DNA of 64,000 bases, taken from the NCBI GenBank assembly GCA_000092065.1, contig CP000584.1; one strand, given 5' to 3'. The position numbers were made by a program, and so were the translations under genes. Positions 10,726-60,369 of this stretch are shown here, piece after piece; position 1 is the stretch's first letter, and the number at the start of each line of letters is the position of its first letter. Source of the stretch: Ostreococcus lucimarinus. Its lineage: Eukaryota. The notes beneath the pieces are model-generated. The model was not told where the DNA came from. It searched no databases and saw only the letters and a list, made by a program, of their open reading frames with translations.

Positions 10726-10827
10726 CTACGTCATCACACTCGTCGTTCGTGCGCACCGTCAGTCTCTCGAGGTCGTCGTCGTCGCGATGATCGTCGGCTG
10801 TCTTCTCGGATTCAAATCTCGACGCAC

Positions 10828-10872
10828 CGTTTGCTCATCCGTGAAACCGGTGATGATGACCACGGTGGACAT
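10828..10872 (-). CDS. multi-BRCT-domain protein, exon 1 (MSTVVIITGFTDEQT) joined to 8293-10725 across a 102-nt intron (10726-10827)
   Basis: ATG is at 10870-10872 (minus) and the donor is ACG|GTGCGT. Splicing removes two in-frame stops and yields VVIITGFTDEQT|DEIEQLAQALDVTIDRGY...THL-type..KY..A....VV...WL, a canonical first BRCT fold. Donor, branch point and phase all fit the intron signature seen elsewhere in the window. Confidence 0.55.
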
Positions 10873-11123: not shown

Positions 11124-12230
11124 CTATTGCTTGGCAATTTGCGCGAACGATTGCCGTAAGCCGTCGACGGTTTTGCGAAACGAAGCGAGCTCGGCAGATT
11201 GCTTCTTTACCGTCGCTTCGAGGTCCTTGACGCGCGACTCCAGCTTGGTGATGTGAGATTTAGACCCCACATGGCTTTTGTCGAGTTCTGCATGCTTGGT
11301 TTCGAGGGTGAGAAGGGCGGTGTCGATCGCGCGAAGGCCTTCGCGCCTGTGCTCGTCGTCATCGACGACGGCTTGCGCCCACCTCTCGAGCGCGCTCACA
11401 CGCGTCGATACCTTGGTCTCGGCGGTATAAAGCATGCGCAAATGATTTTCAGCATTCTCAAACAGATGTTCAGACATTTTCCCTAGTCTGACGGGATGCT
11501 GGCATCCCAACTCAGCGTAAGGGCATTCCACTTCTCGCATGGCGCAGTCGCCTGCTGCGTGGGCTTCCATCTCTCCTCGGGCGATTTGCCGCCCACACTC
11601 CAGTCTGCAGTCGATGAGCTTGTAAGAGCATCGGTTGTCGTGTTTTTCTTGAGAATGCTTGCTGAAACTCGCGGGGCATCCTTCGTTCGAACACGAAACC
11701 GGAAGAAATTTACAGCTTATCTTGTGCTCAAACAACGCATCCTCATCCACACAAGATTTTCGACAATGCGCCTGAAAGTCCGTGTCGTAATAATCTCTTA
11801 CCAACCTAATGGCTAACTTGTGACGCTCCGCCTCGGGCCACGCGTCATCATTATCAAGAAGCAGTGTTGTCGTCGCCGCTACGCCATCCTCTGTAGAGGA
11901 AAACACACCACTCATAAGCCCTTTCTTCCCCGCCGTCCACGCGTTGATGGCGTTCGACAGGTCGACAAGCGTTCTGTTGCTCCCTTTCGCGCCTCTCACG
12001 AGCGCTTCTTCGAGTTCTTTCGCGCATTCCGTCGCACTTTTGAGTTTGGACGAAGTGGACGACAAAACGCTCGATTGAAACACAACGGCTCGAACGACGG
12101 CGTTGAACAGCGCGCTGGCGACATTGTTCGACGTAGAACAACACACGTGGTCGCACGTTAACCGTGACTCGGGCGCGGTTGACTCGAGCGCGCGAGAGGG
12201 AAGTTCGGACTCGGACGTGTCGTCGCTCAT
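11124..12230 (-). CDS. TRAF-type zinc-finger domain protein with a C-terminal coiled coil
   Basis: The Cys/His pattern FLPVSCSNEGCPASFSKHSQEKHDNRCSYKLIDCRLECGRQIARGEMEAHAAGDCAMREVECPY fits TRAF-type zinc fingers. It is followed by a heptad-rich tail (LETKHAELDKS...LESRVKDLEATVKKQSAELASFRK). Real ATG is at 12228-12230 and stop TAG at 11124-11126. Confidence 0.65.
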   Translation of the reverse strand: MSDDTSESELPSRALESTAPESRLTCDHVCCSTSNNVASALFNAVVRAVVFQSSVLSSTSSKLKSATECAKELEEALVRGAKGSNRTLVDLSNAINAWTAGKKGLMSGVFSSTEDGVAATTTLLLDNDDAWPEAERHKLAIRLVRDYYDTDFQAHCRKSCVDEDALFEHKISCKFLPVSCSNEGCPASFSKHSQEKHDNRCSYKLIDCRLECGRQIARGEMEAHAAGDCAMREVECPYAELGCQHPVRLGKMSEHLFENAENHLRMLYTAETKVSTRVSALERWAQAVVDDDEHRREGLRAIDTALLTLETKHAELDKSHVGSKSHITKLESRVKDLEATVKKQSAELASFRKTVDGLRQSFAQIAKQ

Positions 12231-12429
12231 GGTGAGCGTCGCGTCGACGAATGTGGTTGGTGGTTGGCTTTTGCCGTTCAGAAGTGCGGTCGATATTAAA
12301 ATTAAAAAACATACCGTGCATTATTATCTACGTATTGTCTACGTGCGTGCGTGTCGTGTGTCGTGTGTCGCGTATCCGGAAATTCGGGTAATATACAGTG
12401 GCGTCGGCGCAGACCTGACAGCGCGTTGA

Positions 12430-13356: not shown

Positions 13357-13543
13357 CTGTCGCGTTCAATTCGACGTCGTCAGTCCACGCCATTCGCGTC
13401 TTCACTCGCGCGTCTCCATTTTTAATCTCCGATCGACCGTTCGCGCGCGTCCCCGAGTCTCCTCCGTCGCGTCTCCTCCGTCGCCCCTCGCGATTCAATT
13501 CTCCCGCGCTCGCCCCCAATCCATCGCCTCGCTCGCCACGCAC

Positions 13544-13615
13544 GCTCCAATTGCACGCGTAGATCATCCACGGCGCCTCATAGGTGTATATTTCCGCCCT
13601 CTTCTCCGCGTTCAT
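13544..13615 (-). CDS. DCAF7: DCAF7/WDR68 exon 1 (MNAEKRAEIYTYEAPWMIYACNWS) joined across a 187-nt intron (13357-13543)
   Basis: ATG is at 13613-13615 (minus). EIYTYEAPWMIYACNWS matches the DCAF7 N-terminus EIYKYEAPWTVYAMNWS. The donor AGC|GTGCGT is phase 0, and the junction restores ...NWS|[11 protein letters not shown], matching human [14 protein letters not shown]. Confidence 0.75.
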
Positions 13616-19395: not shown

Positions 19396-20050
19396 CTCGA
19401 GTCTATTTCACGCGAAAACGTCATCGACACGTCAGTCTCTCGCACGCTCAATCGCCGCTCGTTCTTCGTCGCGCGCGCTCGCGCGTCCCGCCTCCCTTTG
19501 GGGTTTCTCCTTCATCCCATCGCCCCGCGTTTTCGCTTCCTCCCGCGCGCCCACGCCCACACCGCGTTCATAATCCACAACCACAATCAGCATTCAACCT
19601 TTCCTCGCCATCGCGCCCGCCCGCGATCGATCGCGCGCGTCCCGCGAGCTCCCATCGCGCGCGCGCGATCGGCCAACTAGGGCTTGCGCGCGCGGTCGAC
19701 CCGCGTGCCGTTCGCGCGCGTCGTCCCGCCCGCCGCCCTCGCGCGTCGCCGGCGCATCGTGCGTTATATCTTCCATCGCGTTCGCGCGCGCGCGCGCGTC
19801 GTCGCGTCGATCGTACCTCAGAAGCGCGTCTTGAAGAGACGGATGCCGTCGCGCCCGGCGCGGCGTCGCGCGCGCGAGACCATCGCCTCGTCGATTGACT
19901 CGTCGATTGACTCGAGACGTGGGACTCTACGTATTCAACGTCCGAAATGCGGATCATCACGGAGTGAAAATGAAAATCACACCGCGCGCGGCGCTTTTTC
20001 GAAGCGCAGCCGCCGGCGCGCGCGACGCCGCGGTCACCTCGCGACGCGCG

Positions 20051-23883: not shown

Positions 23884-23901
23884 ATGAACGCGCTCGCTCA
23901 G
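23884..23901 (+). CDS. psaF: putative psaF exon 1 (MNALAQ) joined to 24396 across a 494-nt GC-rich intron; hypothesis
   Basis: The psaF reading frame has no ATG between its upstream in-frame stop (TAG 24369-71) and the mature protein. ATG 23884 is followed after 6 codons by CAG|GTACGC, phase 0. An acceptor CGCAG| at 24395 is preceded 28 nt upstream by ACTGAC, the window-wide branch signature. The join gives MNALAQ|[31 protein letters not shown]..., a plausible transit peptide. The donor deviates from the GTGCGT/GTGAGT donors seen elsewhere. Confidence 0.3.
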
Positions 23902-24395
23902 GTACGCGTCGGTTCGCGCGTCGTCGGCGCGCGCGACGCGACGCGACGACGCGCGCGCGCGACGCGAGGGACGGCGCGCGCGCGATCGGCGTTCGAAACG
24001 ATCGGTCGATCGCGCGCTCGTCGCGTCGTCGCGTCGCGCGCGCGATGGACGCGCGGCGGCGATCGGGCGTCGGGTGGGGGCCGACGCGCGATCGCGCGGG
24101 CCGCGCGCGGCGCGGCGCGGACGCGCGCGAGACGCGGCGTCGATCGAGGGCGGACGCGCGCGATCGGTGGATCGCCACCGCGGGGCGTCGAGCGGGACGA
24201 CGGAGGCGGCGCGGGCGCGGGCGCGAGGCGGATTCGGGCGGCGCGCGCGACGCGAGAGGGCGCGGACGCGGTGGCGCGCGAGGTCGGGAGGGCGGGGCGC
24301 GCGGGCGAAAGGGCGCGCGCGACGACGAAGGCGAGCGCGGGGACGAGGGCGAGGCGCGAAGACTGACCTAGAACGGATTCGACGCGTCGACGCAG

Positions 24396-25309: not shown

Positions 25310-26128
25310 CTACGCGCCGTTCGGACTCGCAGGCATGGCGAGTCGCGTCACCACGAGATCATCGCTGGTCGTCGATTCTTCCACCAAATACTCGATGAGC
25401 ATGATTGCGAAGAACGTCAGGCAAATTGCGATTCCGACGCCGACGCGCAGAAACTTTGACTGCGGTTGAACGCCGACGTTCGCACCCACCTCGGCGGCTT
25501 CCTCCGCCATGGATGCGAGCGCGGAATCAATCTGTAACAGAACCTCCTCGCGACGTTTCTTTCCAACCTCGCGTCGCTCGTCGTCACCGTTCCCCGCCGC
25601 CGCCCCTCCTCTTTTGGGCTGCGGAAACCGACGCTCCAACTCCGCGAGCGCGAGACGATTCCTCGTCTCGGCCTCGGCCTCGACCTCGGCCATCGCCCCG
25701 ACGCGTCGCGAAGACACTTCGACGACCCCCATCCCCGGTTGTTTCCCCAGTCTCCCCATCGTTCGCCGCTCGCGCCGATTTTCCTCCGCGGCCTCCGCCC
25801 ACGCGTCGAGTTCTCGCAGCGCCTCCCTCGCCTTCGTCTCCTTCGCGTCGCTCGCGCTCCCGAGCTGCAGATCCCACACCGCGCGTTCGCCCAATTCCAT
25901 CGCCCCCTGCGCGGCGTCCCGCACCGCGTCCAGCGCCTCGCGCGAGATTTTCGCCGCGCTCGCCCCCGCGAGCGCTCGGCTCGAGCGTTCGACCGCGTCG
26001 AGCGCGCTCGTGAGCTCATCCACGCTCGACGCCCTCGCGCGCACCGCCTCGCGAAGCGCCGCGCATCGCTCGTACACCTCGCTCACCGCGTCGCCGAACG
26101 GCGACGGCGGCGCGCGCGCGGGCGTCAT
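25310..26128 (-). CDS. tail-anchored coiled-coil protein, SNARE-like (family not resolved)
   Basis: A heptad-rich cytosolic region precedes a SNARE-motif-like stretch EEVLLQIDSALASMAEEAAEVGANVGVQPQSKFLR and a single C-terminal TM (VGVGIAICLTFFAIMLIEYLV). The first ATG is at 26126-28. Stop is TAG at 25310-12, convergent with psaF. Confidence 0.4.
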   Translation of the reverse strand: MTPARAPPSPFGDAVSEVYERCAALREAVRARASSVDELTSALDAVERSSRALAGASAAKISREALDAVRDAAQGAMELGERAVWDLQLGSASDAKETKAREALRELDAWAEAAEENRRERRTMGRLGKQPGMGVVEVSSRRVGAMAEVEAEAETRNRLALAELERRFPQPKRGGAAAGNGDDERREVGKKRREEVLLQIDSALASMAEEAAEVGANVGVQPQSKFLRVGVGIAICLTFFAIMLIEYLVEESTTSDDLVVTRLAMPASPNGA

Positions 26129-26382
26129 CGTGTGGCGCGCCCGCGGTCGCACTCGAAGACGCGACGCCGAGATGTCGACGAAAAAGGTGCGCGAGCGCGC
26201 GCGACGCGCACCGCGGTCGACGCGTCGCGACGCGCGCGCGCGCGGCGACGCGGCGACGCGCGCGCGATCGATGACGCGCGATTGATTACGCCGGCCCGTT
26301 TGCGATTCGATTTGGTGTTGACGGATTGAATTCGAATTTGAACGACGACCGGCGCGTGACTGACGATCGTCGACGCGTGTCG

Positions 26383-26432
26383 ATGCGCGCGCAGCGTACT
26401 CTGCTCAAGGTGATCATCCTTGGGGACTCGGG
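26383..26432 (+). CDS. RAB7: Rab7 GTPase exon 1 (MRAQRTLLKVIILGDSG, phase 2) joined across a 94-nt intron (26433-26526)
   Basis: ATG is at 26383. The donor GG|GTGAGT splits the Gly codon of the P-loop GDSGVGKT. ACTGAC lies 25 nt before the acceptor TGTAG| at 26525-26. Confidence 0.8.
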
Positions 26433-26526
26433 GTGAGTAACGCGCGCACGGCGAGGCGAAGGCGCTCGAACGAATGAACGCTCGCTCGGGACGCGACTGA
26501 CGCGACGACGATCGTCCGCGATGTAG

Positions 26527-33020: not shown

Positions 33021-36000
33021 ATGAGCGAAAAGATGAAATCGGCGTTTCAAGCGGCCAAGTCAAAGGTTTCGAGCGCGGTCGAGACGACCAAGGCGCGGTC
33101 GAAGGCGCGACAGACGTCCGCGGGGGGGAGCATGGATGTCGATGCGTCGTTAAGGGGGGTCGGGGACGACGGAGACGCGCGCGAGGCGCTGCGCGAGGCG
33201 AGGGAACACGCGAATTCGTTGGAGCGAGCGCAGGCGGCGCTGAACGGGGAGATGCGGCGGATGGCGAATGAATACGAAAGGGTGCGCGGTGAGCTCGATG
33301 CGGTGAGCCGGGAGAAAGAAGAGGTTCGACAACGAGCGTCGGCGGCGTGGACGGAGATGACGGCGGAGATCGAGGCGTTGAAGGCGGAGCTCGAGCGGGC
33401 TCGAGGCGGGAAAGCGGAGGGCGACGCGGGAGAAGACGCCATAGATGAACTCAAGCAAAAGGCGCACTTGGAGGCGCGAGCGATTAAAAAGGTTCTTATT
33501 GAAGACAGGGAAAAGTTTGCCGCGACGGAGGCTGAGTTGAGGGGGAGAATTAAAGAATTAGAGGACGCGCTCGCGAATGTCGAGGAAGGCGCCAAGTACA
33601 CAAGCGAGGCGAACGCGGAGCTATCGTCCAACGTGCAGACGTTGGAGTCGCAAGTTTCTTCGCTTCGGATAGAAGTGAACGAGAAAAACGCCACGGTAGA
33701 GCGTTTGGAGCGAGCGAGCGCGGCGCCGTCTGAAGAAGTTGCGGCGGCACGTGCGGAGACTCGACAGACGCAAGCCCAAGCCGAAAGACTCGAGTCTTTG
33801 CTCGAGGTCACGAAGTCGGAACTCGAAAAGACGACGTCTTCGCTCGAACAAGAAGAAGCGAACGGCGCTAAAACACGCGAAGCCGTGGTGTCGCTAGAGT
33901 CTCAGTTAGCGGCGGTAACAGCAGAGCTGCAAGCAAGTACAGACGCTCAAGCGTCCACAAGCTCTGCAACAGACGAACTCAAGGCAGAATTAGCCGCCGC
34001 ACGAGTCGAGTACGGCCAAGTACGGTCCGAGCTCGAGGCGAAATCGAAGGCGCTGGAGCAGGCGCAGGCTTCAAGCGTGGCGACAAGTGAGCTCGAGGCG
34101 GAGCTGGCTTCCACGCGCTCTGAGCTCGAGGCGAAATCGAAGGCGCTGGAGCAGGCGCAGGCTTCAAGCGTGGCGACAAGTGAGCTCGAGGCGGAGCTGG
34201 CTTCCACGCACTCTGAGCTCGAGGCGAAATCGAAGGCGCTGGAGCAGGCGCAGGCTTCAAGCGTGGCGACAAGTGAGCTCGAGGCGGAGCTGGCTTCCAC
34301 GCGCTCTGAGCTCGAGGCGAAATCGAAGGCGCTGGAGCAGGCGCAGGCTTCAAGCGTGGCGACAAGTGAGCTCGAGGCGGAGCTGGCTTCCACGCGCTCT
34401 GAGCTCGAGGCGAAATCGAAGGCGCTGGAGCAGGCGCAAGCTTCAAGCGTGGCGACAAGTGAGCTCGAGGCGGAGCTGGCTTCCACGCGCTCTGAGCTCG
34501 AGGCGAAATCGAAGGCGCTGGAGCAGGCGCAGGCTTCAAGCGTGGCGACAAGTGAGCTCGAGGTGGAGCTGGCTTCCACGCACTCTGAGCTCGAGGCGAA
34601 ATCGAAGGCGCTGGAGCAGGCGCAGGCTTCAAGCGTGGCGACAAGTGAGCTCGAGGCGGAGCTGGCTTCCACGCGCTCTGAACTCGAGGCGAAATCGAAG
34701 GCGCTGGAGCAGGCGCAGGCTTCAAGCGTGGCGACAAGTGAGCTCGAGGCGGAGCTGGCTTCCACGCGCTCTGAGCTCGAGGCGAAATCGAAGGCGCTGG
34801 AGCAGGCGCAGGCTTCAAGCGTGGCGACAAGTGAGCTCGAGGCGGAGCTGGCTTCCACGCACTCTGAGCTCGAGGCGAAATCGAAGGCGCTGGAGCAGGC
34901 GCAGGCTTCAAGCGTGGCGACAAGTGAGCTCGAGGCGGAGCTGGCTTCCACGCACTCTGAGCTCGAGGCGAAATCGAAGGCGCTGGAGCAGGCGCAGGCT
35001 TCAAGCGTGGCGACAAGTGAGCTCGAGGCGGAGCTGGCTTCCACGCGCTCTGAGCTCGAGGCGAAATCGAAGGCGCTGGAGCAGGCGCAGGCTTCAAGCG
35101 TGGCGACAAGCGAGCTCGAGGCGGAGCTGGCTTCCACGCACTCTGAGCTCGAGGCGAAATCGAAGGCGCTGGAGCAGGCGCAGGCTTCAAGCGTGGCGAC
35201 AAGCGAGCTCGAGGCGGAGCTGGCTTCCACGCGCTCTGAGCTCGAGGCGAAATCGAAGGCGCTGGAGCAGGCGCAGGCTTCAAGCGTGGCGACAAGCGAG
35301 CTCGAGGCGGAGCTGGCTTCCACGCGCTCTGAGCTCGAGGCGAAATCGAAGGCGCTGGAGCAGGCGCAGGCTTCAAGCGTGGCGACAAGTGAGCTCGAGG
35401 CGGAGCTGGCTTCCACGCGCTCTGAGCTCGAGGCGAAATCGAAGGCGCTGGAGCAGGCGCAGGCTTCAAGCGTGGCGACAAGCGAGCTCGAGGCGGAGCT
35501 GGCTTCCACGCGCTCTGAGCTCGAGGCGAAATCGAAGGCGCTGGAGCAGGCGCAGGCTTTGTCAAGTGAGACGCAGCAACGGTTGGAAACCGCTCGCAAC
35601 ACATCGCAGTCGGAAGTATCCGTGCTGAAGCAAGAGCTTGTAGAAAAGAATCATGCTCTTGCGGAAGCGCAAGCGTCGAGTGTGAACGTGGAAGAAATTC
35701 AAGCCACGACTCAGTTGTTGGAATCTCAGCTTGTTGCAGTGAAAGCAGAGCTTGAAGCAAAGAGCGCAGAGCTCGACGCACAGAAGGAGGCACTCATGCG
35801 CGCCGAAGCGACGAAGAGTTCAAGCGCAGAAGAAGTCGAAACAATGAAAACGACGTTAATGTCTCAACTTGCGATGGTGCAAGACGAACTCGCGTCAAAG
35901 ACCGAGGCGCTCAAGAAGGCAGAGTCTGCGTCGAACGCTGCAGCACAAGAAAAAGCAGCCGCGAAGGAATTGTTCGATTCACAATTGAGCTCTGCGCGAG

Positions 36001-37058
36001 CGGAAATTGAATCAAAGACGAGTGAGGCACAAAGTGCATCGGACGCAAGGGACGCCCTGCAGTCCAAGGTGAGCGCCCTTCAAGGCGAGCTTCAGGCGAA
36101 ACATGAAGCGCTCGAGCTTGCGCAAGCCTCAACGGGATCAGCGACGGACGAACTCCAATCGAGCCTCGATGCGGCTCGTCAACGAGCCCTTGGTTTTGAA
36201 ACCGATCTCGAAGCGCTTCGTGCAGAGCTCGCGGCTCTTCGTGCAGAGCTCGCGGATAAAACGCAAGCGCTCACCGCGTTTGAGCAGAATGCCTCCGCCG
36301 CGAGGACGGAGCTACAAGAGAAACTCGAGAAGAGTCTTGAGCACGCTCGAGCAGAGAATCAACAAGTAACGGAAAAACACGAGGAAGTGCAGGCGACGTT
36401 ATTGACGGATGTGGAATCGCTCAAGGCGAATCTAGAGTCGGCAGAGACTCGTAATGCCGTCATGGAAGAGGAGCTTCGCTTGACAAACGAAGCGCTGAAT
36501 CGTTCATCCGTCGAAGCCTCGGGCATTGAAAGTGTTCGCACACAGCTCGCTGAGGTCAGCGAGCGTTTCAAAGAGTCCGAAATGGAAAGATCCACTCTCG
36601 AGCAAAGTCTGCGCGTCGCGAACGAGCGCCTGACCTCGTTGGAAGAACGACTCAAAGTTGCTGAGGAGAACGATGCCTCCGCCGCCGAGGCGCTCCGTGA
36701 AGCCAATGAACAAGCCGCGAAGGCGAAGGATAACGTCGCGTCCATCGCCTCCGTGAGCGCCACCCAATTCGCTCAAGAGCGTCAAATGATGAAAAATGCC
36801 CTGAGCGAGCTCCAAACCGAGCGTGACATCCTCGTCAAGATGCTCAAAACTTTTCACGCGCACGGCGTCGTGCACTCGACGAGCGAGACAGCGTCTCATC
36901 GCGACGCCAGCGAGAGCGTCTTCGGGGACGGCCCTTCGGAGTTCGCCCGGCGTTTCACCGATTCCGCGTCATTAGCTGGCGTGTTCACCCCGAGAAAACG
37001 CGCCCCGTACGTTGACCTCGACCGGCAGTCCCCCAACTCACCGCGCTCGCCCAACTGA
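33021..37058 (+). CDS. large coiled-coil protein (1345 aa) with 16.5 tandem 31-aa repeats SELEAKSKALEQAQASSVATSELEAELASTR/H
   Basis: A real ATG at 33021 is divergent from the BAZ-like gene, 231 bp away. It is a continuous A/E/L/K/Q-rich heptad protein with N- and C-terminal unique coiled-coil regions flanking the repeat block. Stop is TGA at 37056-58. No motor or globular domain was recognised. Confidence 0.75.
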   Translation: MSEKMKSAFQAAKSKVSSAVETTKARSKARQTSAGGSMDVDASLRGVGDDGDAREALREAREHANSLERAQAALNGEMRRMANEYERVRGELDAVSREKEEVRQRASAAWTEMTAEIEALKAELERARGGKAEGDAGEDAIDELKQKAHLEARAIKKVLIEDREKFAATEAELRGRIKELEDALANVEEGAKYTSEANAELSSNVQTLESQVSSLRIEVNEKNATVERLERASAAPSEEVAAARAETRQTQAQAERLESLLEVTKSELEKTTSSLEQEEANGAKTREAVVSLESQLAAVTAELQASTDAQASTSSATDELKAELAAARVEYGQVRSELEAKSKALEQAQASSVATSELEAELASTRSELEAKSKALEQAQASSVATSELEAELASTHSELEAKSKALEQAQASSVATSELEAELASTRSELEAKSKALEQAQASSVATSELEAELASTRSELEAKSKALEQAQASSVATSELEAELASTRSELEAKSKALEQAQASSVATSELEVELASTHSELEAKSKALEQAQASSVATSELEAELASTRSELEAKSKALEQAQASSVATSELEAELASTRSELEAKSKALEQAQASSVATSELEAELASTHSELEAKSKALEQAQASSVATSELEAELASTHSELEAKSKALEQAQASSVATSELEAELASTRSELEAKSKALEQAQASSVATSELEAELASTHSELEAKSKALEQAQASSVATSELEAELASTRSELEAKSKALEQAQASSVATSELEAELASTRSELEAKSKALEQAQASSVATSELEAELASTRSELEAKSKALEQAQASSVATSELEAELASTRSELEAKSKALEQAQALSSETQQRLETARNTSQSEVSVLKQELVEKNHALAEAQASSVNVEEIQATTQLLESQLVAVKAELEAKSAELDAQKEALMRAEATKSSSAEEVETMKTTLMSQLAMVQDELASKTEALKKAESASNAAAQEKAAAKELFDSQLSSARAEIESKTSEAQSASDARDALQSKVSALQGELQAKHEALELAQASTGSATDELQSSLDAARQRALGFETDLEALRAELAALRAELADKTQALTAFEQNASAARTELQEKLEKSLEHARAENQQVTEKHEEVQATLLTDVESLKANLESAETRNAVMEEELRLTNEALNRSSVEASGIESVRTQLAEVSERFKESEMERSTLEQSLRVANERLTSLEERLKVAEENDASAAEALREANEQAAKAKDNVASIASVSATQFAQERQMMKNALSELQTERDILVKMLKTFHAHGVVHSTSETASHRDASESVFGDGPSEFARRFTDSASLAGVFTPRKRAPYVDLDRQSPNSPRSPN
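34026..35562 (+). repeat. 93-bp tandem repeat, ~16.5 near-identical copies, in frame inside the coiled-coil CDS
   Basis: The unit is tc(t/c)gagctcgaggcgaaatcgaaggcgctggagcaggcgcaggcttcaagcgtggcgacaag(t/c)gagctcgagg(c/t)ggagctggcttccacgc(g/a)c. Copies differ only at ~4 positions: cgc/cac giving R/H, gcg/gtg giving E/V, agt/agc and gag/gaa synonymous. The period is 93 = 31 codons. Confidence 0.92.
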
Positions 37059-41779: not shown

Positions 41780-41875
41780 ATGGGTCGCGTCATCCGAGGT
41801 TGCCGTAAGGGTAAAGGGTCGGTGTTTACCTCCCACACCCACACCCGCAAGGGCGCGGCGAAGCATCGCCAACAG
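41780..41875 (+). CDS. RPL8: 60S ribosomal protein L8 (uL2), exon 1 of 3
   Basis: MGRVIRGCRKGKGSVFTSHTHTRKGAAKHRQQ is collinear with plant RPL8 [31 protein letters not shown]. The donor is CAG|GTGCGT. Intron 1 is 41876-42139 (264 nt), with ACTGAC 25 nt before the acceptor CGCAG|. Confidence 0.88.
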
Positions 41876-42139
41876 GTGCGTCGACGACGACCGGCGCGCG
41901 ACGCCACGGGACGCGCGATGGCACCGCGATCGCGACGCGCGCTCGAGGATTGGCGCGCCGTGCGCGCGCGATCGACCGCTCGAAGCGCGGTGATGGGTGA
42001 TGGAATATGCGTGTTATCGAATCGCGTCGACGCGCGCGATGGGGACGCGTCGGCGCGCGCGCGACGGGGTGAAACGTGGATGGAGTTGTGAAAGACCTAA
42101 GACGGACGACTGACGATGGGACTCGACGCCGCGACGCAG

Positions 42140-42223
42140 GATTACGCCGAAAGACACGGTTACGTCAAGGGCGTGGTGACGGATATCATTCACGACCCGG
42201 GTAGAGGCGCGCCGTTGGCCAAG
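42140..42223 (+). CDS. RPL8: 60S ribosomal protein L8 (uL2), exon 2 of 3
   Basis: [28 protein letters not shown] is collinear with [28 protein letters not shown]. The donor is AAG|GTGCGT. Intron 2 is 42224-42409 (186 nt), with ACTGAC 31 nt before TGTAG|. Confidence 0.88.
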
Positions 42224-42409
42224 GTGCGTGTTTGCGATGTGTTCGACGGCGCTGACGCTCGATCGTCCTCGACGGGAGTAGGGCTTTGGACGCGCGAGGC
42301 GCGCGCGCGCGGAGGGACGTGCGTTCGACGCGAGGGAAGATTCGAACGCCCCTGTGCGTGTTTGAATCAGTGACTGACGATGTTATAAACTTTTTCGTGC
42401 GATGTGTAG

Positions 42410-44602: not shown

Positions 44603-45880
44603 TCATTCCCCACGTAGTGCAAAGTTCCTCAAGAGACCCATATCTGCGGTCTCTAGGAGAACGTCGAGTTGTTCGAACACTTTTTCGGCCACCTCCGTGC
44701 CTCGGAGAATGTCGTGCAGTTCCGCTCGAAACTTTGAAAAAAGCATTCGCGTAGATTGGCGCCTATGTTCAAGTTCCGGATTCTGTTCGAATGAGGGAAA
44801 GACGTACGAATTCAAAACTTCATCGAAATCAACGAAATCCTCAACGCCCAACAGAGGATCATCGTTCGCCGCTCCGCACGTTGGAGCATCATCGCCAGAT
44901 GCTTCAGGAGCGAGAAAGAACTCGTTATCCTCGTGCAACTGAGCGATAGATTTCGGCTCGAGCTCAGGATCCCAGCCGTAATCAAGAAATGGAAGTGGTC
45001 TGTGCGATCCGTCGCGCGGAGCTAGGCACAAGCGCCGCGCTAGATTAGCTTCCAACGCCTTGCTGTGCGTGTCGTCGTCGTCAGGAATGGGTTTAGCGGC
45101 GACGGCGTCGTCAGGCTCGTCGTCGTCACCCAGGTCTAGCTCTTTGCCTTTGCTGTTCCTCGAAGGAGCGTTAGCCTTTCTTCTGTTTCGGCCGTTTGCT
45201 TCTGGTTTCGCCGTTATCGTTGCGGCTAAAGTATCTCGACTTGCGGATGTCGTCGCCGTCTCGGCGACTGATTTGGTCGTTGCTTCATCCGCCGTTTCCC
45301 TCAACGTGTCCGAACGGTTCTTTCTCTTCCCAGAGGCTCGTTTTTTGACTTTGATGGGGACTTTCGTGTTCCCATGCGTGACTAGTTTCGTGAATGTTTT
45401 CTGTTCCTCCATTTGCGAGCCCCCGAACAAGTCCACGAGCATGCGCGCCGCGTCCTCTTGCGTCTCAACTTCCGCGGGCGCATCGGGCGTCATCGACCGA
45501 TCTTCCGCCGCGTACGCCATCACCGCCTCCGGTAACGGCACCTCCAACGGCCCCACTGGTTCAATTTGGTGCTGTACATCCGCCGCCTCCGTCCTCGCGA
45601 ACAAGTCCCGCAGCGTCCTCTCCGACACCCCGAGCGCCCGCAGCTTCCCTCGATTCACCTCGTACGACGTCGTTCCCGGTTTGATCCGAAATATCTCGCT
45701 CCCATCGCTCGCACTCACCGCTTTGTTCGCCCCCGCCATGTTCAAAATCGTCGCGAAGAACGTGTCCGGATCCGGCGCCCCGTACCAGTACGAGTTTTTA
45801 TCAAACGTCGTCCCGAAGATTGTCACCAGCATGAATTCCACTCGTTTCCTGTACGGCAGCTCCGCCCCCATGTTCCGCAT
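44603..45880 (-). CDS. hypothetical protein (conserved-looking N-terminal ~110 aa, acidic/K-rich middle, C-terminal region)
   Basis: It is a continuous 425-codon ORF from ATG 45878-80 (MRNMGAELPYRKRVEFMLVTIFGTTFDKNSYWYGAPDPDTFFATILNMAG...). It has normal GC3 codon bias and non-repetitive composition at both ends. No family was recognised. Stop is TGA at 44603-05. Confidence 0.4.
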   Translation of the reverse strand: MRNMGAELPYRKRVEFMLVTIFGTTFDKNSYWYGAPDPDTFFATILNMAGANKAVSASDGSEIFRIKPGTTSYEVNRGKLRALGVSERTLRDLFARTEAADVQHQIEPVGPLEVPLPEAVMAYAAEDRSMTPDAPAEVETQEDAARMLVDLFGGSQMEEQKTFTKLVTHGNTKVPIKVKKRASGKRKNRSDTLRETADEATTKSVAETATTSASRDTLAATITAKPEANGRNRRKANAPSRNSKGKELDLGDDDEPDDAVAAKPIPDDDDTHSKALEANLARRLCLAPRDGSHRPLPFLDYGWDPELEPKSIAQLHEDNEFFLAPEASGDDAPTCGAANDDPLLGVEDFVDFDEVLNSYVFPSFEQNPELEHRRQSTRMLFSKFRAELHDILRGTEVAEKVFEQLDVLLETADMGLLRNFALRGE

Positions 45881-46991
45881 GTGTCCGAGACCGAGAAACC
45901 TGAGCAACGATTTCGTGCGTTGCAGGATTTTCCTGCGCGTTCGAGCGTCGCGCGACGCGCGGCGGGCGATCGATCGTCAGTCGCGATTCCGTCGGTCCCC
46001 CGATCGCGTCGCGCGCGCGTCTGCGCGCGCGCCGTCTCGCTCGCGCGCGTCGCTCGCACCTGCGCTGATCCACCACGCGCGGTTTCGCTCGGTGCGATAC
46101 CATGGCGTCGCGCGCGCGTCGCTCGAGGGCGAGCGCGAGGCGATCAGTGCGGCGAAACAGGGCACTGTCTCGTGCCCAGGTTCAGCGCGGATTCGGCGAC
46201 GCGCGCGGGGTCGACCGAGGCTCGGCGCGCGCGAGCGCGGGCGCGAAACGAACGGTGGAGCGCGGCGTGGAGTGATGCGTGATTAAACGTTCGAACGCGC
46301 GCGACGCGCGCGATGGCGCTCGAGGAGGCGGCGCGGCGTCGACGACGCGTCGGACGCGAACGCGGACGACGCCGAGGCGTTCGCCGGCGCGAGCGCTCGA
46401 CCCTCGGCGAGGGCGCTCTCCAACGCCGCGCGCGAGAAACGACCGTCGCGGCCGTCGACGTCGCGCACGGTGCGCAGGGCGTTTCGCACCCCCGCGCGCG
46501 TGATCTCGGGTCGTCGCATGCGGGCGTGCTCGAACAGACCGATCCACGCCGCGGCGAGGAGCAAGAGCGTCAACGCGACGACGCGCTTTTGAGACCTTCG
46601 ACTCTGAAGCAGTAAAACCCCGAGCGGCATGACGACGCAGATCAGAAACACGACCACGAGATCGAACCAAAACGTCTCCGCGTACGTCGTCGGCATGGCG
46701 TCATGGTGTGTCCGGCGAACCGCGCGCGCCGCGTCACACAATAGTCGTCGCGTTCGGCTCAACAACGACCGCGCGCCGCGCGCGCGGTCGCGGCGCCACC
46801 GTCGCGCGCGTCGACCGAGACGCTCGCGCGCGCCGACGATAAAAATTTCCTTCGCGCGCGCGCGACGCGCTTTCGCGGCCGACGCGCGGCGCGCGCGTTT
46901 CAGACCATCCGCTCGCTCCGAACCAAACTTTGAAGTCGAAACGTCGACCAGCTGTCTGTCCGTCTGTCGCGTCAAATCGCGTCGCCGCGCG

Positions 46992-55516: not shown

Positions 55517-55724
55517 ATGCCGGCGCATCGTGAATTTGCGCTGACTGAATATTTCGTCTCAGTAGATGCGCGAAAGCGCGCGAACTGCGCGACGGACGCG
55601 GTGGACGGTTTCGTGAAGATCAACCACGGTCTATGCGTCGAGATTCCTCTCTTCGCGCGCGTGGGATTGGCGCTTACGAACGCGTTTTATTGGGTCCTGG
55701 CGTGGAAGTTGCTGCGTTCGACGG
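55517..55724 (+). CDS. CREST-superfamily (alkaline-ceramidase-like) membrane hydrolase, exon 1 of 2 (tentative)
   Basis: ATG is at 55517 (MPAHREF...LFARVGLALTNAFYWVLAWKLLRST). The donor ACGG|GTGAGG is phase 1. The 101-nt intron 55725-55825 ends in TATCAG|, with ACTGAC 27 nt upstream. Phase is restored to give ...RST-G-MFDDSQ... Confidence 0.4.
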
Positions 55725-55825
55725 GTGAGGCGCGAGCGAAGCGAAGCGAAGCGAAGACGACGCGCCGTTGGAAATGTTGCGCGAAACGTGAGACTGACGG
55801 CGGTGCGTGGAACGTGCGTTATCAG

Positions 55826-56445
55826 GAATGTTTGATGATTCTCAGTGCGCGCGTGATTTGTGTCGTTCGCACGCGTTTCACGTTTTGCTTGTTTTTGGCA
55901 TCGCGTCCGCTTCGACGGCGTACCATTTCTACCAGCTCGGTCTGGATCGAGAGATTTCGAGGGCGTCGCGCTCAGCGTGCGATTGCTTCAAATTTCGTGG
56001 ATTTACGCTACCTGGAACTGGTACGACGTCAAAGAAGGTCAAGGCTTCGCCGCTCAAGGTGACGTCGCTGAGGCAGCTTTCAGACGAGCGCGTCGGTTTC
56101 GACCGTTTACGCTCGGACTCTGCGCGAGATCTCTCTGCGAGTGCGGCATGTTCGCCGTCGCCGACGAAACCTTCGGTGACGACCATGTCTTTATATAATT
56201 ATCCCGGTGAGTTGGTGAGATGGCTGTGCGCGATGGACATAGGATGCGCAATCATCTACGGCGTATTTTGCGCGACTTGCTTCGGCGCTGAGAAGATTCT
56301 CAGCGCCGGTCGTTTGCCGACCGTATTTCTTGTCACCGCCATGATATGCCAGCGCGCCGAAAAATACTGGGCCTACGTCGTGTTACACAGCATTTGGCAC
56401 GCCCTGAGCGCCGCGCTCATGCTCGATTTCTTGCTTGCGCAGTAG
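55826..56445 (+). CDS. CREST-superfamily (alkaline-ceramidase-like) membrane hydrolase, exon 2 of 2 (tentative)
   Basis: There is a His in a TM (CRSHAFHVLLVFG, compare ACER SWCFH) and a C-terminal YVVLHSIWHALSAALML (compare ACER HAWWHILTGLG). A long Ser-rich loop separates them, and there are about 5 TM helices. It is followed by an AT-rich 3' region with AATAAA. Stop is TAG at 56443-45. Confidence 0.45.
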
Positions 56446-56540: not shown

Positions 56541-57730
56541 CTAAAAGTGTAAAGACACGGGAGCACTCTCCTTCTCTTCCTTCTCCGCGGCCCTGCCACC
56601 TTCAGATCGGGCGTAGAACAAAATGTATCCGTGCTCGCTCCCCGCGGAGCCGCCATCCGTCGTCGAGCCAAAGACTTGTTGAAGCTGCTCTTCATCCACG
56701 ACTTCAACGCAATCGTCATCGTACAAGAACCAGCGATGATTATTCTTGGCGAAACACACGTAGTGTCCGTGATTAGGCCCGGAGCCGATGTGAACGACGA
56801 CGGCGAAAAGCTTATAACTCGCATCGGGATTCTCCGCTTCGTCTATCAAGTTGGGAATTTTCAATTCGGAAGGGAACACCACGCGATGATTCAGTTTCGC
56901 GTGCCTGCCGAGCGCCTCGATGTACTTGAACCGCTTCAAGTGTAACGACAATACTTTCGGCGCTTCATGAATCAGCATTCGCTTCTGCGCCTCGTGTAAC
57001 CCACCGCATCGATCGCACTGAAACTTGTCGTTTTTGTCCAACAACTCCTTGGCGCTGAAATTATTCAAGCACGCCGTGATGGAAGTGTTCTGCTCGACAT
57101 CAACCGACAGGTCCAAAAAGCACTCCTCTCTATTCGTCGTGTTCTCACACCATAAACACCGCGTCTGATTCGCCAGTTTCCCCTCGAACACATCGTGTAT
57201 CCACGTCTTCTTCCCCGGTTCCCACGCGCCGTCTCGCTTCAACTTCGTCTGTAAATTTTCGCAACACTCATTCAGCAAGAAGTTTAAAAACTCGTGCGCA
57301 TCCTGATGCATGTGTCCTCGAAACAACACGTTATCCTTCCTCAACCGTTCGATGAACGCCCTCGGGCTGACGTATCCCGTGCGTTTCGTTTGTCCCGAAA
57401 TCTCTCGAAACAGATCCCCGAGCGCCGCCAGCATGCTGTCGGGCGTCTCCTTTCCTCGTCCGCTCGTCGACGTCCCATCGTTCGCCGCCGCGTGATGTTC
57501 GATCAATCGTTCTCGAAACTCATCGCACGCGTACAGCGCCTGGAGCACCGAGTTACAGTAGCACGTGTTGCCAAAGTTTTCCAATCCAAAAAACTTTGCC
57601 GACGGTGGGAACGCGTCGCCGAGCGTCTTCGCGTTGACTTGCGCGCGCGCGCGTCGCCGATGACTCCCGCCCGCGCGTTCGCGTTCGGCGACGCCGCGGC
57701 GAGAGATTTGACAAAGTTTAGAAAGCCCAT
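56541..57730 (-). CDS. ubiquitin C-terminal hydrolase, USP12/USP46-like; N-terminus interrupted by a frameshift in a (GC)6-7 tract near 57641-57653
   Basis: The Cys box FGLENFGNTCYCNSVLQALY and His box GPNHGHYVCFAKNNHRWFLYDDDCV are present, with collinearity to USP12 throughout (QDAHEFLNFLLN, DLSVDVEQNTSITACL, LHLKRFKY). The catalytic-frame ORF has no ATG upstream of the Cys box. The only suitably placed ATG (57728-30, MGFLNFVKSLAAASPNANARAG...) is in the +1 frame and joins the main frame only if 2 nt are removed or 1 nt added within gcgcgcgcgcgcg. Stop is TAG at 56541-43. Confidence 0.65.
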
Positions 57731-57790
57731 GACCGGCAATGGCGAGTCGACGCGTGCGAGAGGTGAGTGCGTGAAATACAGTTGGGGAAG

Positions 57791-59875
57791 CTACGCGCGG
57801 GCGCACTCGCGAACGAAGGAGTCGAGCACGTCCTCGTACTGGGAGAGAAAGTGGTCGGCGATCATGGTGCGAGATAGGATGATCTTGCGGTAGACGTCTA
57901 AATCGACGTCGAAGAAGAGGGCGTGGCGGGACTCGCGGCGGGCTTCGTCGACGGCTTCGTCGAGGCCGGATTTGTAGACAAAGTGAAGGATTCGGCCGGC
58001 GGGGTAGAGTAAGACGGTGCCTCGCTTGGCGATGTCTTGGTCGGCGCGGGCGTCGCTTGACGCGGATTTGACGCGTTTGACGACGGGCTCGCGCTCGGAG
58101 TCGTCGCACGACGCGGTGTCGTCCATGCGCGGCGGCGGTAAGTCTGCGCCGTAGTAATCCGCCGTCATGAGCGCCTCCTCGTCTCCCAACAATTCGGCTG
58201 CTTTCATGACGGAGATGTCTTCTTGCATTGCCAGCACCTCTTGCGCCGCGTTGGCCTCAGCGCGATAAATCTTTTTCATATCGTCAGCGGTGAGCGGTTT
58301 CTGGAAGTCTTCGTCGAGCGCGATTCGAGCGCTCTCGATGTACTCCTGGAAATCGCGCTCCTCCTGCGACTTGGGCGAGGCGGCGGCGGCGTGCGCGTGC
58401 GCGAGATGGGCGTCGTGACAAATATCGGTCGCGAGCACGGTGGCAGAGATGGTGTCGCCTACTTGCTGATTCGTCTTGCTGAACTCAGTCTTGCTCTCGC
58501 CCGTCGGCTCTGCTCGCTCGAGCGTTTTCTTCTTCCTCGGTCGCGGGGGGACGATGCCGGCGATGAACGCCCCCGAGAGACTGGCTAATTTTGAACTCGT
58601 GTTACTCACGCGTTTGCCGATCAGCAGGCTTTGTCTGTACAGCGAACTCGACTCGACTAACTTATCGTGCCTTGTCTTCAATCCTTTCAGCGCGCGCAAC
58701 CACTGTGGGTACTTTTGTGGGCCGTAGTTTTGTTTTCCCAGAGCCGCGGCGGCGGCGGCGAAACGCGACGGCGTCGGTCCTCGAGCGCATTCCATCGCCG
58801 CGGTACTCTCTCTCCATTTATCCAACAATCTTTGCTCGAGCGCCGTACTCACGACTTCGCGCTGTAACTCGCTCACTTTGCTAAAACTAACCATCGGGAC
58901 TAAATCGGCGTTGTTCACGCACGTCGTTACGAAAGATCGACACGACTCGGCGAGCTCGCGACTCAGCGTCGACGGGCACGCGAAGGTGAAACAGTGCAAG
59001 CCCACTCGCTTGAACCTCGGGTCTTGTCGTAACATTTCGGTGAGCAACACCGCGACACCACCACCCAAGGAGTGCCCGACGATCTTCAGCTCGTACCCGG
59101 GGTGCGCCGCGAGCGAAGACAGCAAGTCGTCTTTAATCTTTCGCTCGAGAAATCTCGCCGTGGTGAGGAATCCGCTGTGAGCGTACCCGACGCGCAACGT
59201 CGCCTCCTCGTCATCCGACGTCGACACCATCGTGTGATGCGCGCACACCGAGCCAGTTAAATTTGTTATCATATCCTTCGCGCTGTGCGTGCCTCGAATG
59301 ACAAAAACCAACCGCTTTTCATCCTCGTCCCGAAACAACACGTACGCCGGCCGCATCATTCGCGGCGCCAAATCGCTCAACAAAATCGCCTCCTGACCCA
59401 CCCCTCCCTGCGCCGCCACCGTCTTCAAATCCGGCGCCCTGCGCAACGATTTCGAATACGTCAGCGCCATCTTTATCTCCCTCAAACTCTTCTCCCACGC
59501 CTCTTTCGCGTTCGAATCGTCCGCCGTCCTCGCCGTCCTGTTCAAACGCGCGCGCGTCCCGCGTCTCGCCACCTCTCTCGCGATCGCCCCCCCCATGTCT
59601 CGCTGCGACAGCATCCGCAGCGCCAGCACGTGATCCAACCGCCATATGTTCAACCGCGCCAGCGCTTCGCTCCAGCTCAACCGCACGACGCGCGCGAGTC
59701 GCGTCGCGCTCTCGCCCCACGTCGTCGGCGGTGGTGGCGCCGCGTCGAAAAGCAGCGACGACGCGCGCGCCGCGTCGTCGTCGCGCGCGCCGCTCGCGCG
59801 CGCGCGCACGAACGCGCAGAGCGCGCGCTGCACGACCGCGCGGTCGACGCCGCGCGCGACCCGCGCGGGGGGCAT
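57791..59875 (-). CDS. class-3 (fungal-type) lipase domain protein, sn-1 DAG-lipase-like
   Basis: The nucleophile elbow IVGHSLGGGVAVLL has a preceding YVLFRDEDEKRLVFVIRGTHSAKDMITNL (lipase_3 lid/oxyanion region) and a downstream LHCFTFACP. Real ATG is at 59873-75 and stop TAG at 57791-93. Its stop is 60 bp upstream of the USP gene start on the same strand. Confidence 0.7.
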   Translation of the reverse strand: MPPARVARGVDRAVVQRALCAFVRARASGARDDDAARASSLLFDAAPPPPTTWGESATRLARVVRLSWSEALARLNIWRLDHVLALRMLSQRDMGGAIAREVARRGTRARLNRTARTADDSNAKEAWEKSLREIKMALTYSKSLRRAPDLKTVAAQGGVGQEAILLSDLAPRMMRPAYVLFRDEDEKRLVFVIRGTHSAKDMITNLTGSVCAHHTMVSTSDDEEATLRVGYAHSGFLTTARFLERKIKDDLLSSLAAHPGYELKIVGHSLGGGVAVLLTEMLRQDPRFKRVGLHCFTFACPSTLSRELAESCRSFVTTCVNNADLVPMVSFSKVSELQREVVSTALEQRLLDKWRESTAAMECARGPTPSRFAAAAAALGKQNYGPQKYPQWLRALKGLKTRHDKLVESSSLYRQSLLIGKRVSNTSSKLASLSGAFIAGIVPPRPRKKKTLERAEPTGESKTEFSKTNQQVGDTISATVLATDICHDAHLAHAHAAAASPKSQEERDFQEYIESARIALDEDFQKPLTADDMKKIYRAEANAAQEVLAMQEDISVMKAAELLGDEEALMTADYYGADLPPPRMDDTASCDDSEREPVVKRVKSASSDARADQDIAKRGTVLLYPAGRILHFVYKSGLDEAVDEARRESRHALFFDVDLDVYRKIILSRTMIADHFLSQYEDVLDSFVRECARA

Positions 59876-60369
59876 CGCGCGCGCGTGTGCCGTCGCGGCG
59901 GTTCGCGGCGGTCGCGTTCGATCGGCATCCGCGTCGTCGTCGTCGTCGGACGCGGGAAAAAATAGGAGGCCCGTCAGTGGAGATGAACATCAAACGGTCT
60001 ACGCGACTGCGTGCGCAGAAAATCGATCCGGCGCGCGCGGGCGCGGTGGCGTCGGTGTCGTTACGGGCTTCGCCCGGGCGGGCTGGGCAGAGAAAGTCAA
60101 CAACGGCGACGGCGTCGGCGCGAGGCGCGCCCGTAATCGCGTCGAAGATCGAGAAACGAAATCGTCGACGACGAAATTTCTCGTCTCGTCATCAAGGATA
60201 AATGCACTCGTCGTCTGCAGGACGCCGACTACGTTTTTTTTTCCGCGGCGACCTCAACCGGCGTTTCGTGGCTGTCGTTTTCTCGCGTCGTCTCGACGCC
60301 TCGGACGCGCGTGACGTCACTTTACGACGCCGACGCGACGACGCACCGACGACGACGACAACGAAAACG

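Follow-up and report, generated by a model that had tools for sequence, protein, structure and literature searches.

Introns with one rigid set of splice signals at the 5′ ends of genes in a 64-kb stretch of the Ostreococcus lucimarinus genome

Introduction

Irimia & Roy (2008) (PLoS Genet 4:e1000148; PMC2483917) described the introns of Ostreococcus lucimarinus that are confirmed by expressed sequence tags and lie outside chromosome 2. They reported an 'atypical consensus GTGCGTG' at the 5′ splice site (4.8 bits), ACTGAC in 87.15% and the octamer GACTGACG in 66.5% of these introns, a broad peak of branch-to-AG distances 'around 20-35 bp' and a preference for CGCAG at the acceptor. Verhelst et al. 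(2013) (GBE 5:2393; PMC3879977) found that canonical introns of the Mamiellophyceae favour AG/GTGCGT and NCTGAC, and cited GACTGACG for Ostreococcus. Highly expressed O. lucimarinus genes have more introns (Lanier et al. 2008; PMC2367439), and the introns that remain in reduced genomes are found preferentially in the 5′ part of ribosomal-protein genes (PMC3488318). Here we analyse the introns in a stretch of 64,000 nucleotides (nt) of O. lucimarinus contig CP000584.1 (assembly GCA_000092065.1), which we call the window. An original prediction, made from the sequence alone, had proposed six introns in it (two in RPL8 and one each in Rab7, DCAF7, a BRCT-domain gene and a gene called ACER-like), and had described their signals and positions as a rigid architecture that can serve as a gene-finding key.

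The introns of the window are like the canonical O. lucimarinus class of Irimia & Roy (2008) in species, GTGCGTG, ACTGAC, GACTGACG, the range of about 20-35 nt, CGCAG and a high G+C content. Nothing essential differs, apart from one spacing of 41 nt and a GTACG donor in two of the ten introns. With the canonical introns of Micromonas and the Mamiellophyceae they share AG/GTGCGT, NCTGAC, the small number of introns per gene and the contrast with the low-GC introns of the outlier chromosome, whereas the Micromonas branch motif is reported 43-52 nt before the acceptor and that of the window introns lies at 20-41 nt. A comparable case is that of Saccharomyces and other hemiascomycetes (GUAUGU, UACUAAC): their genomes are poor in introns, donor and branch site hardly vary, a polypyrimidine tract is weak or missing, and the introns sit towards the 5′ ends of genes and are enriched among those for ribosomal proteins. 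In contrast to Saccharomyces, the window introns have GUGCGU instead of GUAUGU and ACUGAC (with a G-U wobble to U2) instead of ACUAAC, and they are G+C- and CpG-rich.

Results

We found ten introns in the window, which almost certainly are ordinary U2-type GT-AG introns of the canonical class that occurs throughout the O. lucimarinus genome except in the outlier half of chromosome 2. All ten start with GT and end with AG, as expected of U2-type termini, and all ten contain GACTGAC 20-41 nt before the 3′ AG. The individual gaps are 20, 23, 23, 25, 26, 26, 28, 29, 30 and 41 nt, in agreement with the canonical range of about 20-35 nt. The octamer GACTGACG is present in nine of the introns, and the psaF intron carries GACTGACC. 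The donors likewise correspond to the canonical class: six introns begin with GTGCG, four of them with GTGCGT, while GTGAG and GTACG are each used twice. CGCAG is the acceptor in four of the ten. Splicing uses the first AG that lies 20 nt or more beyond the branch motif; closer ones, 2 nt away in psaF and 17 nt away in BRCT, are passed over. No polypyrimidine tract was seen in the ten introns, the pyrimidine fraction between branch and AG being 0.37-0.55. The introns are 94-494 nt long, with a G+C content of 0.58-0.80 (mean 0.695, versus 0.563 in coding sequence) and a CpG observed/expected ratio of 1.93 (versus 1.42 in coding sequence); the psaF intron consists mostly of (CG)n-like runs.

The six introns predicted at first are all GT...AG introns with exactly one ACTGAC each. 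Their predicted motif position, 22-32 nt upstream of the 3′ end, holds when counted to the last intron base, which equals 20-30 nt before the terminal AG. The distance was called fixed, and over the ten introns it is instead a constrained range. The proposed donor tally was right in assigning GTGAGT once (Rab7) and GTGAGG once (ACER-like), but GTGCGT occurs in four of the introns (RPL8 introns 1 and 2, DCAF7 and BRCT) and not in three. First exons of 6-32 codons had been given for all of them; this is true of RPL8 intron 1 (32 codons), DCAF7 (24), BRCT (15) and psaF (6), but not of RPL8 intron 2 and the Rab7 intron, which each come after exon 2, nor of ACER-like, where exon 1 has 69 codons. 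The placement near the gene start is nevertheless general, every intron lying in a 5′ untranslated region (UTR) or within about 210 nt of the start codon.

Two other classes of intron were considered and rejected. The outlier-chromosome class (chromosome 2/BOC1) has introns of 40-65 nt, low in G+C and without a branch motif, and is thus unlike the window introns in length, in composition and in the motif, which is always present here. As for the U12-type class, none of the introns has a donor [AG]TATCCTT or a branch TCCTTAAC 10-15 nt from the 3′ splice site. The window has a G+C content of 58% and about 31 genes with ten introns in 64 kb, or about 0.3 introns per gene, in an intron-poor genome. 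The O. tauri RPL8 orthologue lies on CAID01000004.2. From the G+C content, the gene density and this orthologue we conclude that the window is ordinary nuclear DNA and not part of the low-GC, intron-dense portion of chromosome 2, so that its location is also that of the canonical class. The GenBank record carrying the matched O. lucimarinus CCE9901 proteins is 930,724 bp long.

We then investigated the evidence for splicing, which supports real spliceosomal introns that lie near gene starts and share one rigid signal set. Six of the ten junctions are visible in spliced transcript contigs (L001, L002 and L009-L014), namely both in RPL8, both in Rab7, and those of DCAF7 and of an unnamed gene at 44603-46103, showing that these introns are removed from mRNA. 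Among the six introns of the original prediction, the splicing proposed from protein collinearity is confirmed by transcripts for four (RPL8 twice, Rab7 and DCAF7), and the BRCT and ACER-like models match GenBank proteins exactly. The translations spliced at the predicted coordinates of RPL8, DCAF7, ACER-like, BRCT and psaF are identical, residue for residue, to the CCE9901 proteins in GenBank, so that the claimed recovery of micro-exons in BRCT, ACER-like and psaF reproduces existing protein models. In all, eight spliced proteins equal CCE9901 proteins of GenBank. The 2007 GenBank models contain five of the six predicted introns with exactly these junctions; the Rab7 protein is consistent with the intron alone, and its first exon is wrong, as described below.

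In RPL8 (+ strand), a first exon of 32 codons (41780..41875), established by translation and an exact protein match, precedes intron 1 (41876..42139; 264 nt; donor cag/GTGCGTCG, acceptor CGACGCAG), with its branch motif CGACTGACGA at 42109-42114, 23 nt from the AG. Exon 2 (42140-42223; 84 nt, 28 codons) is followed by intron 2 (42224..42409; 186 nt; donor aag/GTGCGTGT), with TGACTGACGA at 42373-42378, 29 nt from the AG. The junctions 41875/42140 and 42223/42410 are both found in the JGI transcript contig L002, and the spliced protein equals XP_001417217.1 and an MMETSP open reading frame (ORF). The 5′ 1978 nt of L002, which contain a NEMP-domain ORF, have no match to the window.

Rab7 (+ strand) has two introns. 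Intron 1 (26187..26394; 208 nt) has the donor aag/GTGCGCGA (GTGCGC), the branch motif TGACTGACGA at 26359-26364 (28 nt to the AG) and the acceptor GCGCGCAG. Intron 2 (26433..26526; 94 nt), which is the one originally predicted, has the donor ggg/GTGAGTAA (GTGAGT) and CGACTGACGC at 26496-26501 (23 nt to the AG). The junction 26432/26527 is present in the Logan transcript L001 at 100% identity, and the same transcript links 26166-26186 straight to 26395 onward, joining MSTKK to RTLLK. The first coding exon is therefore a micro-exon of five codons, MSTKK (26172..26186), seen in L001 and in proteins P0016 and P0019, and exon 2 covers 26395-26432. MSTKKRTLLK... is the start of an exact Logan protein, and a metatranscriptome ORF has the identical N-terminus. 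The start codon proposed at first, at 26383, falls within intron 1. The GenBank protein XP_001417213.1 (MASRRTLLK...) has its first exon at 25335-25346, about 1 kb upstream, with a donor GTCACC and inside a gene on the opposite strand. This public first exon looks mis-predicted; L001 and the metatranscriptome ORF support MSTKK at 26172 instead. Nucleotides 1-276 of L001 have no match to the window and encode a SNARE/VAMP-like peptide (...KILKIQRELDDTKVVLHKTID...). L001 is probably an assembly chimera whose parts meet at the tiny 5′ exon of Rab7.

On the minus strand, DCAF7/WDR68 has a first exon of 24 codons (13544..13615) and an intron at 13357..13543 (187 nt; donor agc/GTGCGTGG), with GGACTGACGA at 13384-13379, 20 nt from the AG. 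Four transcript contigs (L009-L012) join 13544 to 13356, and the spliced protein equals XP_001417471.1. The BRCT (TopBP1-like) gene, also on the minus strand, has a first exon of 15 codons (10828..10872) and an intron of 102 nt (10726..10827; donor acg/GTGCGTCG), with AGACTGACGG at 10763-10758, 30 nt from the AG that is used. Its spliced protein equals XP_001417469.1. With the 15-codon exon included, the N-terminal Pfam BRCT match goes from a sub-threshold 16.4 bits to 28.8 bits and covers profile positions 10-77 instead of 23-77. Also on the minus strand, the gene at 44603-46103 has a first exon of 14 codons plus 2 nt (46060..46103) and an intron of 127 nt (45933..46059; donor cag/GTGCGAGC, GTGCGA). 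Its branch motif CGACTGACGA (45981-45976) lies 41 nt from the AG, outside the proposed 20-35 nt. Transcript contigs L013 and L014 join 46060 to 45932, and the spliced protein equals XP_001417479.1.

The gene called ACER-like (55517-56445, + strand) encodes a predicted membrane protein. Its first exon has 69 codons plus 1 nt (55517..55724), with N-terminal residues conserved among homologues, and its intron (55725..55825; 101 nt; donor cgg/GTGAGGCG, GTGAGG) has AGACTGACGG at 55793-55798, 25 nt from the AG. We found no transcript for this intron or for the BRCT intron. The spliced protein equals XP_001417220.1, and homologues of about 50% identity (P0110-P0115) are continuous across the junction, whereas the read-through products P0116 and P0118 lose homology exactly there. 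The protein has no Pfam match at E ≤ 0.01, and the name ACER-like is therefore unsupported. Its relatives in a large protein search are only unnamed proteins of marine assemblies, about 50% identical, which have in common a conserved NAFYW..LAW block and a C-terminal HSIWHALSA motif.

In psaF (+ strand), a first exon of six codons, MNALAQ (23884..23901), is followed by an intron of 494 nt and 80% G+C (23902..24395; donor cag/GTACGCGT, GTACGC and not GTG), with AGACTGACCT at 24362-24367, 26 nt from the AG. The spliced protein equals XP_001417212.1, and the branch and acceptor are kept in the relative L015. The remaining intron, absent from the annotation, is a probable 5′UTR intron of RPL9 (19403..19816, - strand; 414 nt), with the donor gag/GTACGATC (GTACGA), the motif AGACTGACGT, which contains GACTGACG, at 19436-19431 (26 nt to the AG), and an acceptor 7 nt before the ATG. 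An annotation that holds coding sequences only cannot display a 5′UTR intron. The predicted signals recur in three related Ostreococcus loci (L016, L019 and L020), where donor, GACTGAC and AG precede the ATG by 414-432 nt, 41-43 nt and 7 nt, respectively. Metagenome contigs were scanned for the exact spliced psaF and RPL9 5′UTR junctions and gave no match, but this collection may not hold the relevant transcripts; as not even psaF, a highly expressed gene, was present, we regard these scans as uninformative about splicing.

Several transcript contigs (L009-L011, L002, L013 and L014) read on into adjacent genes. The DCAF7 contigs L009-L011 continue into a zf-TRAF gene (11124-12320) and the RPL8 contig L002 continues to 43377. 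Contigs that span neighbours reflect overlapping or abutting UTRs in a very compact genome.

We then investigated how specific the signals are within the window. Further introns were sought by following every ACTGAC on both strands (21 in total), which gave four beyond the six predicted: psaF, Rab7 intron 1, the gene at 44603-46103 and the probable RPL9 5′UTR intron. The total of 21 shows no over-representation, 24.7 ± 4.7 being found in dinucleotide shuffles. In contrast, the introns, 2.2 kb in total, hold ten of these against an expectation of 0.5. An ACTGAC would fall in a positional window of 22 nt by chance with a probability of about 0.005 per intron, and it is present in ten of ten. GACTGAC occurs 11 times in the window (128 kb, both strands); ten copies are intron branch sites and one, at 49319, is coding. 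The donor GTGCGT is found 22 times on the sense strand of coding sequence. Specificity is thus carried by the branch motif and not by the donor, the discriminating signal being the extended GACTGAC(G). The copy at 49319, a GACTGACG within an ORF of 1269 amino acids, was considered as an intron branch and rejected, since neither nearby donor gives a frame-preserving intron; it is therefore coding.

The search expression GTG[AC]G..{60-500}ACTGAC.{20-35}AG, offered as a stand-alone gene-finding key, does not perform as one. Dinucleotide shuffles yield 10.9 ± 3.3 matches to it and the window nine, of which seven are true and two false (1749 and 54466, both antisense to long ORFs), and three of the ten introns are missed, namely the two with GTACG donors and the one with a spacing of 41 nt. 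A relaxed scan (GT[AG][AC]G ... CT[GA]AC ... AG) was useless for discrimination, with about 90 matches. We also considered a frame-joining intron between the minus-strand ORFs 57791-59989 and 56541-58256; the upstream ORF has a normal stop, and these are separate genes. A purging of ACTGAC from exons was suggested by 11 copies outside introns versus 24-28 expected under mono- and dinucleotide models. We dropped this idea because the deficit is not significant on codon-shuffled coding sequence, where two sense-strand copies compare with 5.9 ± 2.4 and a count this low arises in 5.8% of shuffles.

The signals are conserved in relatives, as the original prediction had proposed to check in related prasinophytes. 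Both RPL8 introns occupy the same positions in O. tauri (two strains, L003 and L004) and in two metagenomic Ostreococcus lineages (L005 and L007), where their donors are GTGCGT or GTACG and 26-32 nt separate (G)ACTGAC from the AG. Since these positions are common to O. tauri, they are old. Only 44 of 341 alignment columns are invariant in intron 1 and 39 of 219 in intron 2. The signals are kept while the remaining intron diverges, indicating that the signals are under constraint and that the rest is mostly free to change.

A further conserved element was found in the introns of the window's two ribosomal-protein genes. The 8-mer AAGCCCTA has only two copies in the 64 kb, at 42279-42286 (- strand) in RPL8 intron 2 and at 19685-19678 (- strand) in the RPL9 intron. 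Both are inside 5′ introns, and their orientation relative to transcription differs between the genes. Four Ostreococcus lineages (the window, L003, L005 and L007) have the 8-mer unchanged in RPL8 intron 2, despite the diverged surrounding intron. It is likewise invariant in the RPL9 intron of four loci (the window, L016, L019 and L020, which include two pairs of near-identical upstream sequence), where it lies 281-297 nt before the RPL9 ATG. A conserved AAAGACC(C)TA (42092-42102), just upstream of the RPL8 intron 1 branch, is nearly complementary to GTAGGGCTTTGG (42279-42290) in intron 2. RNAalifold, given only four sequences, predicts an 8-bp helix between introns 1 and 2 that encloses the 84-nt exon 2. 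Among these four sequences, its variable pairs show compatible one-sided changes (A-U to G-U and U-G to C-G) and no two-sided compensation. In this predicted fold, pairing of the two elements could loop out exon 2. For the 8-mer itself, two roles are conceivable: a telo-box-like, promoter-proximal DNA element, or a segment of an RNA structure through which RPL8 splicing is regulated. It matches no Rfam family, and we found no report of it. A small nucleolar RNA in the RPL8 introns was considered and rejected, the conserved block being absent from the published O. tauri sequences of that kind. An Rfam scan of the window gave no family at the gathering score and only chance-level bacterial matches in the RPL8 and RPL9 intron regions.

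Elsewhere in the window, a coiled-coil ORF of 1345 amino acids (33021-37055) contains 16.5 copies of a 93-nt tandem unit that are 98% identical (34029-35559, + strand). The unit encodes SELEAKSKALEQAQASSVATSELEAELASTR.

Discussion

The ten introns are best explained as canonical U2-type introns whose splice signals are nearly invariant in an intron-poor genome. The 5′ splice site is (A)G/GTGCGT(G), with the minor forms GTGAGT/G, GTGCGC/A and GTACG. GACTGAC(G) is the branch site, whose second A would serve as the bulged branch adenosine, and the 3′ splice site is the first usable AG about 20-40 nt past it, often CGCAG, without a polypyrimidine tract. U1 would pair with the donor, SF1 and then U2 (through GUAGUA) would recognize ACUGAC, and the AG would be selected by its distance from the branch. 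The location within the first 210 nt or so of coding sequence or in the 5′UTR represents the 5′ positional bias typical of intron-poor genomes, a bias most pronounced in ribosomal-protein and other highly expressed genes.

The small nuclear RNAs (snRNAs) of O. tauri are canonical, with U1 AUACUUACCUG, U2 GUGUAGUA and U6 ACAGAGA (PMC7671301 Supplementary File 2). In our pairing analysis, six positions of AG/GUGCGUG form Watson-Crick pairs with this U1, positions +3 and +7 form G-U wobbles, and C at +4 is mismatched to U. On the U2 side, GUAGUA can pair with ACUGAC as A-U, C-G, U-A, G-U, a bulged A and C-G, and by this complementarity ACUGAC is a yUnAy-type branch site. In GACUGACG, the flanking Gs are opposite A38 (mismatch) and U32 (wobble) of U2. 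We infer these pairings and the identity of the branch adenosine from complementarity rather than from measurement.

Several points weigh against the assignment to the canonical class. Four of the ten introns (BRCT, ACER-like, psaF and the RPL9 5′UTR) have no transcript match. The pairing analysis used snRNA sequences of O. tauri and not of O. lucimarinus, and canonical U1 and U2 pairing does not explain why donors favour G at +3 and C at +4, nor the Gs that flank ACTGAC. The inventory of introns may also be incomplete, because the search was mainly led by the motif, and introns without ACTGAC (about 13% in the published set) would escape it. An intron list drawn from the annotation was attempted by looking up ten single-exon ORF proteins; one had an exact GenBank match, and no independent list of motif-less introns resulted.

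It is possible, though rather unlikely, that the 5′ introns are kept for a function beyond splicing and that the extended signals are read by proteins and not by snRNA pairing. We consider this because canonical U1 and U2 leave part of the signals unexplained, AAGCCCTA is conserved and the RPL8 elements are nearly complementary, all of which are observations that would fit it.

Alternatively, the spliceosome itself might have co-evolved, or a second one might exist, with U1 and U2 changed to complement GUGCGUG and GACUGACG, a possibility raised by Irimia & Roy (2008). The +4 mismatch and +3 wobble against canonical U1, together with the ACUGAC-flanking Gs that lack Watson-Crick pairing to canonical U2, would be accounted for in this way, and co-evolved U1 snRNAs do exist in Entamoeba (bioRxiv 10.1101/2022.06.08.495308). 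However, the expressed U1, U2, U5 and U6 of O. tauri have canonical recognition sequences (PMC7671301), and GTGCGT and GACTGAC also serve as signals in the RPL8 introns of this species; we therefore regard a co-evolved spliceosome as very unlikely. Moreover, no snRNA gene was found in the window.

Even less probable is a mobile intron family such as the introner elements of Micromonas, in which GACTGACG would be shared through common ancestry of the introns. The IE-C introners of Micromonas RCC299 do carry the identical extended branch motif (PMC3879977), and the window introns share CG-rich stretches with weak mutual BLAST matches. But IE-C introners, about 67 nt long, recur as copies that resemble one another, whereas the window introns are unique, 94-494 nt long and, in RPL8, at old positions shared with O. 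tauri. In an all-against-all BLAST of the ten introns, the matches are short (up to about 100 nt), 75-88% identical, multiply overlapping and of a low-complexity (CG)n type, with no full-length similarity. Among the introns and the rest of the window we thus found only low-complexity partial matches and not the many end-to-end similar copies of an introner family.

Finally, common short motifs might merely coincide by chance in G+C-rich DNA, with some of the proposed introns unspliced. Such a coincidence would agree with the unenriched search expression, the frequency of GTGCGT on the coding sense strand and the unremarkable ACTGAC total, but it is already refuted for the six junctions seen in spliced transcripts and can practically be discounted for the others, whose models equal GenBank proteins, restore a Pfam domain or restore collinearity with homologues, given the concentration of ACTGAC in intron sequence and the conservation of the signals in orthologues.

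We therefore return to canonical U2-type introns. GenBank has listed the introns since 2007, and their signature appeared in print in 2008, so that the original prediction is an accurate rediscovery and not a novelty. The rule is useful for the O. lucimarinus genome but already in use, the 2008 study having quantified the signals genome-wide. The practical value is limited to the repair of gene models, namely the first exon of Rab7 and the unannotated 5′UTR intron of RPL9. The wider question is why intron-poor genomes converge on rigid splice signals. To this the window makes a small addition: both U1 and U2 are canonical in a congener with the same signals, which argues against snRNA co-evolution in Ostreococcus.

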